A DNA stretch of 64,000 nucleotides from Myxococcota bacterium. GTDB taxonomy: Bacteria > Myxococcota_A > Bradymonadia > UBA7976 > UBA1532. The position numbers and the translations under genes are program-made. Shown here in pieces: positions 19,103 through 23,002 of the stretch. The stretch spans positions 9,086 to 73,085 of the forward strand of contig CAUJDF010000105.1 of the NCBI GenBank assembly GCA_963169045.1, written 5' to 3'. Under the pieces are notes generated by a model. That model saw only the letters and a list, made by a program, of their open reading frames with translations, searched no databases and was not told the origin of the DNA. Position 1 is the first letter of the stretch; each line of letters begins with the position of its first letter.

Positions 19103-22100
19103 TCAGCCGCGATGGCTGCGACAGAGGTCGAGGAGGGCGGCGCCGATCGACGCGGCGAGCTTCGGCCCGACGCCGGGCACGGCGAGCAGCGCGGCCTCGT
19201 CCTGCGGGCGGCGCTCGCAGAGGGCCTCGAGCACGCGGTCGGTGAAGACGCGGAACGCCGGCACGCGTCGGCGCTTCGCTTCGCCGAGCCGCCACGCCCG
19301 AAGCGCGGTCGCGAGCGGCGACTCGGCGGCGGTCCGGCGCCGCTCGCCGCGCGGTACGCCGACGCGCTTGCGCCCCCGTCGCGGCGGCTTCGGCGAGGGC
19401 GACGCCGCGGCGGGCAGCGGTACCTGCGCCAGCGTCTCGACGCCGACGGCGCCGCGCCCGCGCGGCGTGAGGCTCGCGCGCTGGAACGGGATGCGCTGCC
19501 CGTCCTTCTCGAACACGTCCTCCGCGAGCCGGACGAGCCCCATGCGGGCGAGGCCACCCAGCAGCGCCTCGAAGGCGCGTCGGTCCGCCGGCGCCTCGCC
19601 GATCACCTGCTTGCACAGCCGGCCCGCGCTCTGGTGGTCCTGCGCGCGAAGCCGCTCCAGCGTACGCGCAAGTTGCTGAATCTCCTCCGGATTCGGCGCC
19701 CGCCGCGCGACCGCCAGCGCCGCGTCCGGCGCGCAGACGTCGCAGAGGCCGCAGGGAGCGCCGCTGTCCTCGGCGTCGCCGAAGTGGCGGACGAGGTGGA
19801 GCATGCGGCAGTCGTGGGCCTCGGTGTACCGACCCATCAGCACCGCCTGCTGCGCGCGCTGGTCGCGCTGCGCCGCGTACTGCGCCTGCCATCCGTCGCG
19901 GCCTCTCTGCACGTCCTCCTCGGGCGTCACGACGGCCGCGCCCGCCAGCCACAGCTTCTCGAGCGCCTTGTCGAACGTCTCGCGCTCGACCCGCGCCTTG
20001 CGCCGGACGGTCTGCTTCGTGACCGGTCGCGCGGTCAGCGCGTCGAAGACCTGCTGCAGCGTCTCGGGCTCGGGGTAGTCGCGCTCGTGGAAGAACTGCA
20101 GCGTGTGCCGGTCCGCGTAGGAGTGCAGGAGCACGGCGCGCGACTCGCGGCCGTCGCGACCGGCGCGGCCGATCTCCTGGTAGTAGCCTTCGATGCTGCC
20201 GGGCAGCGCGAGGTGCACCACGGTGCGGACGTCCGCCTTGTCGACGCCCATGCCGAACGCGACCGTCGCGACGACCACGTCGAGGCGCCCGGCGAGGAAC
20301 GCGGTCTGGACCTCTTCGCGCGCCGCCGCCGTCATCCCCGCGTGGTAGGCGGCGCCGCGGAAGCGCTGGGAGAGCGCGTCCGCGGCCTCCTCGGCCCGCT
20401 TGCGGGTCGGCGCGTACAGGATCGCCGGCAGGCGCCCCGCCCCCTGCAGCAGCGCGCTCGCGAGGCCGATGCGCTCGCCGGGCGGCGCTTCGCGCACCTC
20501 GATGGCGAGGTTCGTGCGCCGGAAGCCGTGGATGAACGTGCGCGGCGCGCTCAGGCCCAGCTGCTCGACGATGTCGCGCTGCACGACCGGCGTCGCCGTC
20601 GCCGTCACCGCCACGATCGGCGCCGGTCGCAGCAGCGGCAGGCGCTGGCCGAGCAGGCGGTAGTCGGGCCGGAAGTCGTGGCCCCACTGCGAGATGCAGT
20701 GCGCCTCGTCGATCGCCACGAGCGCCGGCGTCCGGCGGGCCAGCATCTCGGGGAAGCCGGGCACGCCGAGCCGCTCGGGCGCGACGAACAGATAGTCGAG
20801 GGTGCCATCGAGGTAGGCGCGACACACGTCGCGGCTGGCCTGCCGGTCGAGCCCCGAGTGGATGCGCGCCGCGTTGAGGCCGAGGCCGCGCAGCTTCGCG
20901 ACCTGGTCCTCGATGAGCGCGATCAGCGGGCTGACGACGAGCGTCGTGCCGCCGCGCGCGAGCCCGGGGAGCTGGTAACAGAGCGACTTGCCGGCGCCCG
21001 TCGGCATGACGAGCAGCACGTCGTGACCCTCGGCCGCGGCGCGACAGACGGCCTCCTGGTGCGGCCGGAAGGCATCGAAGCCATACACGCGCTTCAGCAG
21101 GCCGGGCAGGTCCTCGCCGGCCTGCATCCGCGCCGTCGACTGCGCGGGCGGCGGCGGGTCCCCGATGCGATGCGGCACGCGCCCCACCACCTCGCGCACG
21201 TACTGCTCGATGCCGGCCATGAACGCAGCGAGCCCGCCCTCGCCGCGCGCGATCGCCTGCAGCCGCGCCTCCCACTGCCCGGTCATGATCGGGCTCTTCA
21301 CGGTGGGATCGACGACCTCGATGAGCCGGATGCCTTTGTCGGTCGCCGCGAGCGTCTTGCCGCGACGGACGATGTACCCGCGCGCGAGCAGCGTCTCGAT
21401 GATCGCCGCCCGCGTCGCCGGCGTCCCGAGGCCGGCGTCCCGCATCGCCCGCGAGAGCTCCTTCTCGTCGAGCGTGCGCCCGGCGGTCTCCATCGCCGTC
21501 AGGAGCGAGGCGTCGGTCAGACGGGGCGGGGGACGGGTCTGCTTCTCGAGCGCCTTCGCATCGAGCACCCGCTGCGCCTGGCCCTCGGCGAGGCCCGCGG
21601 GCAGCGCCTGTTCGGGCGCGTCGGCCGCCTCGTCGTCGTCGGTCTTTTTCTTCGGCGTCTGCCGGCCGCCGCCGACGTCGAGCACCTTCCACCCCGGCGA
21701 CTCGATGGCCGTCCCGACGCTGTGGAAGAGGTCCGTCGCTTCCGGCGATCTCACCTCGGTGATCACCGTCGTCGCGGCCCACACGAAGTCGCCGTGCCAC
21801 GCCTGCAGCAGCCGCCGGCAGACGAGGTCGTAGATGCGACGCTCGTCCTCGCCGAGCGCCCCTGCGCGCCGGTCCGTCGGGAGGATGGCATGGTGGTCCG
21901 TGACCTGCGCGTCGTCGACGTGTCGCCGGCCCAGCGGCGCCTGCCCCGTCCCCGGCGCGAGCAGCGGCTCGTACGGGGCGCGGATGGCCTGCACCACCTC
22001 GGGCAGCGTGTCGGCGACCGTGGTCGACAGATGCCGGCTGTCGGTGCGCGGATAGCTCAGGAGCTTGTGATGTTCGTAGAGCGATTGGGCGATCTCGAGC

Positions 22101-23002
22101 GTGCGCTGCGCGGTGAAGCCGAAGAGCCGGTTCGCGTGGCGTTGCAGCTCGGTGAGGTCGTAGAGCTGCGGCGGCGCCATCCGCTTCGTCTCGCGCTCGA
22201 CCGACGCGATCCGCGCCGCGCCGCGCTTCACGCGCGCCACGATCGCGCCGGCCTCGCCCTCGTCGGTCAGCCGCTTGCGCTCGTGCAGCGGCGCCTTCCC
22301 AGGGCGGAACCACGCGCCGTCGTAACGCGCGCCCTCGCCCGGCGAGAACGTCGCGACGACCTCGCGGTACTGCTCGGGCACGAAGTCGCGGATGGCGAGC
22401 TCGCGCTCCACGACCATGGCGAGCGTCGGCGTCTGGACGCGCCCGACCGAAAGGGGGGCGTCCAGCGCGAGGCCGTATGCGCGCGAGAGGTTCATCCCCA
22501 CGAGCCAGTCGGCGCGGCTGCGCCCCTTCGCCGCGTCGGCGAGCCCGTCGAAGTCGCGGGCCGGCCGGAGCCGCGCGAAGCCCTCGCGGACCGCGGCGTC
22601 GGTGAGGGACGAGATCCACAGCCGTTTCACGGGCTTGCGGCACTTCGCCGCCTCGTGGACGAAGCGGAAGATGAGCTCGCCCTCGCGCCCGGCGTCCGTG
22701 GCGCACACCACCTCGGTCACATCGCGCGCGTTCAGCAGCCGCTCGACGACCGCGAACTGGTCGCGCGTCTTCTCGTAGACGACGAGCGGCCACTCGCGGG
22801 GCAGCATCGGCAGCAGGTCGCGGCGCCACCGCCTCCACTCGGGGTCGATCTCGTGGGGCTCGGCCAGGGCGACGAGGTGCCCGATGGCCCAGGTCACCCG
22901 GTAGCCGTTGCCTTCGAGCCAGCCCTCGGCCCGCCGCGTCGCGCCGAGCACGCGCGCGAGATCGCGGGCGACGGAGGGCTTCTCGGCGACGACGGTGATC
23001 AT
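19103..23002 (-). CDS. Single-polypeptide fusion of type IA DNA topoisomerase III (N-terminal ~650 aa) to a RecQ-family DNA helicase (C-terminal ~650 aa, with an HRDC/winged-helix tail), 1299 aa.
   Basis: Topo III features: MITVVAEKPSVARDLA (Toprim), GNGYRVTWAIGHL, VGRVQTPTLAMVVERE, the active-site Tyr motif LSYPRTDSRHL, and HHAILPT. RecQ features: FRPHQ, LLVMPTGAGKSLCYQLP (Walker A), DEAHCISQWGHDFRPDY (DEAH), TATATP, HSY. The C-terminus LRAWRLGEAKRRRVPAFRVFTDRVLEAL is HRDC-like. The reading frame is uninterrupted (table ORF 19103..23095). Confidence 0.85.
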   Translation of the reverse strand: MITVVAEKPSVARDLARVLGATRRAEGWLEGNGYRVTWAIGHLVALAEPHEIDPEWRRWRRDLLPMLPREWPLVVYEKTRDQFAVVERLLNARDVTEVVCATDAGREGELIFRFVHEAAKCRKPVKRLWISSLTDAAVREGFARLRPARDFDGLADAAKGRSRADWLVGMNLSRAYGLALDAPLSVGRVQTPTLAMVVERELAIRDFVPEQYREVVATFSPGEGARYDGAWFRPGKAPLHERKRLTDEGEAGAIVARVKRGAARIASVERETKRMAPPQLYDLTELQRHANRLFGFTAQRTLEIAQSLYEHHKLLSYPRTDSRHLSTTVADTLPEVVQAIRAPYEPLLAPGTGQAPLGRRHVDDAQVTDHHAILPTDRRAGALGEDERRIYDLVCRRLLQAWHGDFVWAATTVITEVRSPEATDLFHSVGTAIESPGWKVLDVGGGRQTPKKKTDDDEAADAPEQALPAGLAEGQAQRVLDAKALEKQTRPPPRLTDASLLTAMETAGRTLDEKELSRAMRDAGLGTPATRAAIIETLLARGYIVRRGKTLAATDKGIRLIEVVDPTVKSPIMTGQWEARLQAIARGEGGLAAFMAGIEQYVREVVGRVPHRIGDPPPPAQSTARMQAGEDLPGLLKRVYGFDAFRPHQEAVCRAAAEGHDVLLVMPTGAGKSLCYQLPGLARGGTTLVVSPLIALIEDQVAKLRGLGLNAARIHSGLDRQASRDVCRAYLDGTLDYLFVAPERLGVPGFPEMLARRTPALVAIDEAHCISQWGHDFRPDYRLLGQRLPLLRPAPIVAVTATATPVVQRDIVEQLGLSAPRTFIHGFRRTNLAIEVREAPPGERIGLASALLQGAGRLPAILYAPTRKRAEEAADALSQRFRGAAYHAGMTAAAREEVQTAFLAGRLDVVVATVAFGMGVDKADVRTVVHLALPGSIEGYYQEIGRAGRDGRESRAVLLHSYADRHTLQFFHERDYPEPETLQQVFDALTARPVTKQTVRRKARVERETFDKALEKLWLAGAAVVTPEEDVQRGRDGWQAQYAAQRDQRAQQAVLMGRYTEAHDCRMLHLVRHFGDAEDSGAPCGLCDVCAPDAALAVARRAPNPEEIQQLARTLERLRAQDHQSAGRLCKQVIGEAPADRRAFEALLGGLARMGLVRLAEDVFEKDGQRIPFQRASLTPRGRGAVGVETLAQVPLPAAASPSPKPPRRGRKRVGVPRGERRRTAAESPLATALRAWRLGEAKRRRVPAFRVFTDRVLEALCERRPQDEAALLAVPGVGPKLAASIGAALLDLCRSHRG

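Follow-up and report, generated by a model that had tools for sequence, protein, structure and literature searches.

The locus considered here raises the question of whether topoisomerase III (Topo III) and a RecQ helicase can be made as one polypeptide in a bacterium and, if so, what such a protein would do. It lies within a 64,000-nucleotide stretch of DNA from a Myxococcota bacterium (contig CAUJDF010000105.1, positions 9,086 to 73,085), hereafter the window. An earlier note on this DNA had claimed that a complete type IA topoisomerase continues, in the same open reading frame (ORF), into a complete RecQ helicase. Our analysis confirmed that the Topo III-RecQ fusion gene is real and that both halves form one polypeptide. 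The fusion is conserved and uncharacterised, and we conclude that it is a new variant of the known RecQ-Topo III partnership. The gene and its parts are as follows; numbering is that of the window and of the 1299-aa product.

19103..23002, minus strand: whole Topo III-RecQ fusion gene, 1299 aa; start MITVV, stop codon 19103-19105
23095, minus strand: alternative upstream ATG, adding 31 residues that lack conservation
21179..23002, minus strand: Topo III core (Toprim and domains II-IV), aa 1-608; from Pfam, NCBIfam, alignment and AlphaFold2 (AF2)/Foldseek
22052..22054, minus strand: codon of the catalytic Tyr317 in the motif SYPRT, invariant in 120/120 fusion homologs
21110..21178, minus strand: inter-module linker, aa 609-631, VPHRIGDPPPPAQSTARMQAGED, without predicted secondary structure
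20093..21109, minus strand: RecQ helicase core, two RecA-like lobes, aa 632-970; from Pfam, NCBIfam and alignment
19820..20092, minus strand: insertion of ~90 aa, aa 971-1061; winged-helix-like element and long helix before the zinc cluster
19733..19810, minus strand: RecQ zinc cysteine cluster, aa 1065-1090 (C1065, C1084, C1087, C1090); from Pfam and alignment
19463..19705, minus strand: RecQ-C-terminal winged helix with beta-hairpin, ~aa 1100-1180 (predicted 1105-1178); from AF2 and Foldseek
19319..19447, minus strand: second linker, basic and of low complexity, aa 1186-1228; from alignment, 40-150 aa in homologs
19124..19315, minus strand: HRDC domain, aa 1230-1293; PF00570, E 5.7e-16

From its first ATG, the uninterrupted minus-strand ORF covers 19103..23095 (1330 aa). 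The start at 23002 was preferred over that at 23095 because the aligned Toprim domain sets in at residue 2-4 from the MITVV start, the same as in E. coli Topo III; because the N-terminus lies 0-1 residue from this start in 58 of the 120 homologs in a 120-sequence alignment; and because the upstream ATG overlaps the start (23094) of a divergent 196-aa ORF within a CATG palindrome. The G+C content at third codon positions (GC3) was 0.90-0.98 in a single frame in each 300-nt block of the whole gene, the junction (aa 570-670) being no exception. G+C at the three codon positions (0.77/0.52/0.95) was like that of other genes of this 75% G+C window. Pfam domains were found in the order Toprim (4.6e-10), Topoisom_bac (3.8e-110), DEAD (1.4e-26), Helicase_C (2.7e-20), RecQ_Zn_bind (8.7e-07) and HRDC (5.7e-16), and an NCBI protein 100% identical to the fusion exists. 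Neither a frameshift nor a chimeric assembly can explain the gene, since 120/120 best database matches, many of them from complete genomes, have this architecture too; the junction, placed by the earlier note at about 21000-21200, showed no sign of a frameshift or stop. Searches of the 1299-aa product with Pfam and NCBIfam models thus bore out the claims made for it: a complete Topo III with its catalytic Tyr motif, a complete RecQ core with an HRDC tail in the same frame, a short Pro-rich linker (nt 21110-21178, within the suspected junction) and a domain order opposite to that of reverse gyrase.

At three other loci (L009, L012 and L058), from MFD long-read metagenome-assembled genomes (MAGs), the Topo and RecQ parts do not share one frame or are spread over several ORFs. 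These broken frames are probably long-read assembly indel errors and not true split genes. Since the halves are out of frame at these loci, assembly errors happen in the opposite direction, by splitting fusions.

By its sequence, the N half is assigned as a complete Topo III core of the PRK07726-type topB subfamily, and its motifs predict that it is catalytically intact. It passed the topB subfamily cutoffs of NCBIfam (NF005829, 661.4 vs 597; TIGR01056, 579.4 vs 515.75), and phmmer against PDB sequences matched it to E. coli Topo III residues 4-592 (~1.7e-86). Residues E7, D103, E107 and Y317 of the fusion align with E7, D103, E107 and Y328 of E. coli Topo III. D103 and E107 lie in the acidic motif TDAGREGE, in which the second Asp of E. 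coli D-P-D-R-E is Gly (D-A-G-R-E). D-A-G-R-E was invariant in all fusions and also occurs in most of the subfamily's standalone Topo IIIs, so it marks the subfamily and does not mean that the enzyme is inactivated. The Topo III decatenation-loop region (aa 504-527) aligns ungapped with E. coli Topo III 502-525, and its length is 24 aa in 72 of 89 family members. An AF2 model was built for aa 1-1200 with a 63-sequence alignment, the HRDC domain being left out. In Foldseek, its N half superposed on Topo III 2o5c_B with a template modelling (TM) score of 0.83 (target-normalised) and a root-mean-square deviation (rmsd) of 3.9 Å over 632 columns.

The C half (aa 632-1299) is classed, likewise from its sequence, as a complete RecQ with zinc site, winged helix and HRDC domain. 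The core motifs are Walker A PTGAGKS (K672), DEAH (765-768), the aromatic-rich loop SQWGHDFR and motif VI QEIGRAGRDG. phmmer matched this half to E. coli RecQ core residues 15-349 and the Zn motif (~1.7e-86), and the AF2 C half superposed on the RecQ cores 1oyw/4tmu (TM ~0.7). The RecQ-family model TIGR00614 (recQ_fam) was passed (368.1 vs 219.8), and scores for the E. coli-type RecQ equivalogs stayed below their cutoffs (TIGR01389, 466.9 vs 640.2; NF008279, 364 vs 1015). The C half is best assigned to a distinct RecQ subfamily bearing the ~90-aa insertion. This insertion is constant in length; E. coli RecQ has ~17 aa between helicase lobe 2 and the zinc cysteines. AF2 folded it at a predicted local distance difference test (pLDDT) value of 95-98 as helix-helix-helix-beta-hairpin plus a long helix. 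Its best local Foldseek matches were winged helices, with weak E-values (>=0.025): ZBP1 Zalpha (rmsd 1.6 Å, 57 columns), IclR and MarR. Given this predicted fold and these local matches, members of the RecQ subfamily seem to carry two winged helices each, whether they are fused or standalone.

The two halves are joined by a segment that varied greatly among homologs. In the 120-sequence alignment the Topo-to-RecQ segment ran from 36 aa, its length in this protein, to 308 aa (median 90) and was P/A/G/R-rich and of low complexity, no homolog having a shorter one; the linker proper of this protein, ~23 aa, is the shortest in the family. The folded segments were constant in length (Topo core 591-635 aa, helicase 333-341, zinc/winged-helix 119-131, HRDC 63-75). 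The AF2 model had a mean pLDDT of 87.1 and a predicted TM score (pTM) of 0.56. Its sole segment with pLDDT <50 was aa 614-621, and aa 609-631 lacked secondary structure. Foldseek found no whole-chain structural match among its top 50 PDB hits, reverse gyrase included, and among PDB sequences no solved chain holds both halves. Because of the hypervariable low-complexity linker, the low pTM despite high pLDDT and the constant folded segments, the modelled fusion looks like two autonomous modules on a flexible disordered tether and not like a rigid, reverse-gyrase-like machine.

To see how far the fusion extends, a homolog search of 5.8 billion proteins was used; it gave 7999 hits, of which the best 120 were analysed. 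The full six-domain architecture was present in all of these 120 (1293-1689 aa, 57-100% identity). Complete genomes with the fusion include those of Myxococcus, Corallococcus, Stigmatella, Cystobacter, Archangium and Hyalangium; the M. xanthus fusion is 1592-1597 aa, and essentially all sampled Myxococcaceae genomes have one. A one-genome-per-species scan gave, among the matches listed, Bryobacterales, Solibacteraceae, Terriglobia, Polyangiaceae, Bradymonadales, Oligoflexus (47% identity) and an uncultured proteobacterium (42%). Kofleriaceae and Thermoanaerobaculia are further carriers; the former belong, with Polyangiaceae and Bradymonadales, to Myxococcota, and the latter, with Bryobacterales and Solibacteraceae, to Acidobacteriota. 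When 1.84 billion cluster representatives were searched exhaustively with HMMER (query aa 1-1200), ~48 of the 150 best clusters at the 50%-identity level had both halves; identity went down to 36%, and one such cluster comes from a Zetaproteobacteria MAG. These findings indicate that the fusion is the normal state in Myxococcota and common in Acidobacteriota.

E7, TDAGREGE, SYPRT, DEAH, the motif VI core and the four-Cys cluster were invariant in 120/120 fusion homologs, and Walker A (119/120) and the aromatic loop (117/120) were nearly so. Motifs of both halves were also kept in nearly all of 31 near-complete distant representatives, down to ~40% identity. Because the catalytic motifs are invariant or nearly so in the 120 homologs, both halves are taken to be under selection. 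Some distant members depart from this pattern. P0142 has QLIGRVHEDL in place of a canonical motif VI, and P0131, P0140, P0142, P0143, P0161, P0166 and P0168 (1137-1257 aa) end past the winged helix, without HRDC. In P0174 (1193 aa; NCBI, 4.5-kb contig, ~36% identity) the Topo III motifs are kept and Walker A, DEAH, the aromatic loop and motif VI are lost; it may be a topoisomerase with a pseudo-helicase appendage.

In neighbour-joining trees, which are crude and too coarse to count fusion and fission events, the fusion Topo halves clustered apart from a large standalone Topo III clade, weakly suggesting that they are separate from the main standalone clade. At Acidobacteriaceae loci L010-L022, no Topo III lay within 8 kb of the standalone RecQs, which are of the same subfamily, and no RecQ was found near standalone Topo IIIs; the loci examined held no adjacent-gene precursor. 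Split-gene ancestry, with an adjacent recQ and topB as precursor, was considered and is unsupported, the halves being unlinked at standalone loci. One Polyangiaceae MAG (JAVTWR01) carries both the fusion and a standalone RecQ paralog with 51% identity to the RecQ half (loci L023 and L031).

The obvious point of reference is the pair of separate E. coli enzymes, RecQ and TopB, which reportedly act together in strand passage (Harmon, DiGate and Kowalczykowski in 1999; Suski and Marians in 2008). The fusion belongs to the same two enzyme families; its halves align end to end with the E. coli proteins, the catalytic motifs and decatenation-loop region are present, and by analogy the chemistry would be the same, with helicase-made single-stranded DNA (ssDNA) feeding a type IA gate. 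The differences are that the Topo half has D-x-G-R-E, whereas E. coli Topo III has D-x-D-R-E; that the RecQ half scores 467 against an equivalog cutoff of 640 and carries the winged-helix insertion; and that the fusion is one polypeptide, whereas the E. coli proteins come from separate genes and do not interact physically (PMC7140829). The eukaryotic BLM/Sgs1-Top3(alpha)-Rmi1 dissolvasome (RTR/STR) is similar in that an HRDC-bearing RecQ is physically coupled to a Topo III-type enzyme, and dissolving hemicatenanes and double Holliday junctions is a plausible shared role. In contrast to the eukaryotic complex, in which coupling runs via the helicase N-terminus and RMI1, the coupling here is covalent and bacterial; no RMI1-type OB-fold Pfam domain was found in the fusion chain or in the window neighbours. 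By these analogies the fusion would be a covalent bacterial counterpart of both the E. coli RecQ plus Topo III reaction and the eukaryotic dissolvasome.

Type IA topoisomerases need single-stranded DNA. Given the architecture, intact motifs, conservation, disordered variable tether and housekeeping-type context (below) established in this analysis, the gene likely encodes a genuine, conserved single-chain Topo III-RecQ enzyme that performs RecQ-driven strand passage (decatenation; dissolution of recombination or replication intermediates), and both modules are predicted to be catalytically competent. Within the chain, RecQ sits at the position of the C-terminal extensions found in this subfamily's standalone Topo IIIs. 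We infer its substrates, coupling and cellular role as follows. The RecQ module would bind forked, gapped or junction DNA via its winged-helix and HRDC domains and, using ATP, would unwind it 3'-5' to yield the ssDNA required by a type IA topoisomerase. The tethered Topo III, at high local concentration and 1:1 stoichiometry, would cleave the exposed strand via Tyr317 and then pass another strand or duplex through the gate. Overall, the enzyme would have an ATP-stimulated activity that decatenates or unlinks precatenanes, converging forks, hemicatenanes and double Holliday junctions, and the fusion would stand in for the SSB- or RMI1-mediated bridging used elsewhere. Studies cited in a 2020 review (Harmon et al. 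1999, 2003, via PMC7140829) reported that RecQ unwinding stimulates Topo III catenation and decatenation in vitro, and eukaryotic RecQ-Top3 complexes dissolve double Holliday junctions (PMC7140829).

Several observations weigh against this proposal. The E. coli RecQ-Topo III partnership is disputed in vivo and the two proteins do not interact physically (PMC7140829), so a dissolvasome role for the fusion is extrapolated. Because P0174 has lost its ATPase motifs and kept the Topo motifs, ATP-driven unwinding is not indispensable to every member. In the neighbour-joining trees, fused RecQ halves interleaved with standalone RecQs (600-750 aa, beginning at the RecQ N-terminus) that share the 90-aa insertion; fusion is therefore not obligatory for this RecQ type. 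In addition, the scope of the analysis of this genome was the 64-kb window, and any standalone recQ or topB elsewhere lies outside it.

The alternatives to RecQ-driven strand passage rank by weight as a targeting module, reverse-gyrase-like coupling, a component of a Dpd island and an artefact. The first holds that RecQ mainly replaces the C-terminal DNA-binding domain of Topo III as a structure-specific binding or recruitment module, or that the fusion only ensures co-expression of uncoupled activities. We regard it as unlikely. Standalone Topo IIIs of the same subfamily (600-1000 aa) do have C-terminal extensions at the site that RecQ occupies in the fusion, the degenerate ATPase of P0174 accompanies intact Topo motifs, and a flexible tether sets no geometry. 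However, all or almost all of the 120 close homologs, and ~28 of 31 distant ones, keep the motifs of the ATPase, the aromatic loop and the arginine finger, and this near-universality argues for selection for helicase activity and not for binding alone. The in vitro literature cited in PMC7140829 also has RecQ unwinding making the Topo III substrate.

A second alternative is suggested by the ingredients themselves. Reverse gyrase is the one well-known natural fusion of a superfamily 2 (SF2) ATPase with a topoisomerase of type IA, and the chain studied here combines the same two covalently. Rigidly docked modules could then couple ATP hydrolysis to directional strand passage (e.g. positive supercoiling) in a mesophile with inverted domain order, and a linker of ~23 aa could permit docking. 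The hosts look mesophilic, judged from their lineage, 75% G+C and soil/freshwater MAG relatives. Against such a machine, the reverse gyrase model TIGR01054 reached 96.8 vs a cutoff of 471.7 and matched the topoisomerase part only. The order is reversed, Topo preceding helicase, whereas in reverse gyrase the helicase-like module precedes Topo IA. The fusion has a true RecQ with winged helix, HRDC and zinc, in contrast to the non-processive, latch-bearing helicase-like module of reverse gyrase. A low-complexity linker of 36-308 aa, variable and disordered, is hard to square with the fixed interface of reverse gyrase, and neither the pTM of 0.56 nor the top 50 PDB hits, which hold no whole-chain reverse gyrase match, favours docking. 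Reverse-gyrase-like coupling is thus improbable. The analogy that the earlier note had implied, with mechanical coupling and positive supercoiling, is weakened, since the linker is disordered and hypervariable and the inter-module confidence is low. Taken more broadly, a mechanistically coupled, ATP-driven single-chain 'dissolvase/unlinkase' with an activity that separate proteins lack (processive ATP-dependent unlinking or directional supercoiling) is rather doubtful. If it were true, the coupled fusion would be an independently arisen mesophilic bacterial counterpart of reverse gyrase with inverted domain order.

The third alternative concerns genomic context. The genes flanking the fusion are unrelated to DNA metabolism; they encode PKD/Ig surface proteins, a TrkA-type channel, a Na/H exchanger and methyltransferases. 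The window is rich in uncharacterised and surface proteins (PKD, Ig, MopE-motif). Features of note are the following.

12213-19004, minus strand: secreted 2263-aa protein directly downstream of the fusion; tandem PPC modules (PF04151, 3.8e-61), many Cys-rich linkers, DUF7107
23094-23684, plus strand: divergent 196-aa ORF, no Pfam or PADLOC match
23764-25002, plus strand: large ORF with strong coding GC3 and no Pfam match
28918-30621, minus strand: large ORF, likewise with strong coding GC3 and no Pfam match
51380-53530, minus strand: as the preceding
54427-56298, plus strand: as the preceding
58817-61060, minus strand: as the preceding

If the fusion starts at 23002, as preferred here, 91 bp separate it from the divergent ORF. 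Scans found no promoter-like or terminator-like sites and no tRNA. In tblastn searches of four window neighbours against 80 loci, no hits were obtained near other fusion genes. All-vs-all clustering of flank ORFs from 15 fusion loci revealed nothing in common except the fusion itself and shadow ORFs, and in Pfam the 66 neighbour ORFs of 10 other fusion loci were assorted metabolic and housekeeping genes, none common between loci. No operon partners, mobile-element genes or defence genes were seen around the fusion. Because its neighbours are unrelated and not conserved, the fusion has the context pattern of a stand-alone chromosomal maintenance gene.

A defence role was nevertheless suggested by PADLOC, in which model PDLC02865, 'DpdF' (1499 positions), matched both halves of the fusion with 1752.5 bits; the RecQ part also drew matches from other DpdF models and from PsyrT models. 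On this reading, the protein would serve as DpdF-type helicase in a Dpd island (7-deazaguanine DNA modification/restriction) or would belong to another anti-phage system. This is very improbable. The curated DpdF equivalog NF041063 scored 200 vs a cutoff of 550 and matched the helicase core only; 0/7 window neighbours matched any PADLOC model; neither Dpd genes nor preQ0 synthesis genes were present among these 7 or among the 66 neighbour ORFs at the 10 other fusion loci; and a gene that occurs in essentially every Myxococcaceae genome sampled follows the pattern of a core gene and not of an island. Membership in a Dpd or other defence system was therefore rejected. The PDLC02865 sub-model evidently represents the same architecture as the fusion, and we conclude that it has captured this housekeeping fusion family; the match is an annotation hazard and no evidence of function. 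Lone 'DpdF' hits of hidden Markov models in Myxococcota and Acidobacteriota genomes are likely false leads and could seed false defence-system calls.

The last alternative, that a sequencing frameshift or misassembly joined two adjacent genes, has a negligible chance of being right, given the coding GC3 signal in one frame throughout, the identical NCBI protein and the hundreds of independent assemblies, finished genomes among them, that carry the fusion, and the window itself offers nothing in its favour.

The earlier note had called a covalent Topo III-RecQ unusual. This stands with respect to textbook organisms, and no description of a natural Topo III-RecQ fusion was found in the full-text literature, of which the open-access part was covered (a mention in a subscription journal is possible); it is thus not, by that literature, an already characterised family. 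It does not stand for Myxococcota, where the fusion is normal, or for Acidobacteriota, where it is common, and the spread that the note had wished to see determined reaches Oligoflexus and Zetaproteobacteria. Public databases already contain many such proteins, and any query by domain architecture would show them. The naming is inconsistent: RefSeq has 'DNA topoisomerase 3', UniProt has 'ATP-dependent DNA helicase RecQ', and 'recombinase RecQ' is also used. The fusion is made of textbook enzymes, the function likely for it is the one to be expected, and only the finding of tight mechanochemical coupling would make it a new principle.

M. xanthus carries the fusion and is genetically tractable, so that the proposed RecQ-driven strand passage is testable there. 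A protein of this organism, MXAN_1950 (Q1DAY5, 'recQ'), increased when mitomycin C had acted for 10 h, and its level was raised in ddiA-mutant cells, both untreated and treated for 5 h (PMC12288472). MXAN_1950 may be the fusion; the link is unproven, since Q1DAY5 was not among the fusion cluster members, though UniProt names the 1592-1597-aa M. xanthus fusion RecQ.

According to the 2020 review, evidence is lacking for a bacterial RecQ-Topo III 'toposome' (PMC7140829). Teamwork between RecQ and Topo III in bacteria is an open question in the field, and the fusion bears on it. It offers a tractable one-polypeptide model of the RecQ-Top3 dissolvasome in which SSB or RMI1 bridging would not be needed. 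Kept intact, with both active sites conserved, in at least four bacterial lineages, it is 'Rosetta stone' evidence for a functional partnership of the two enzymes in bacteria.

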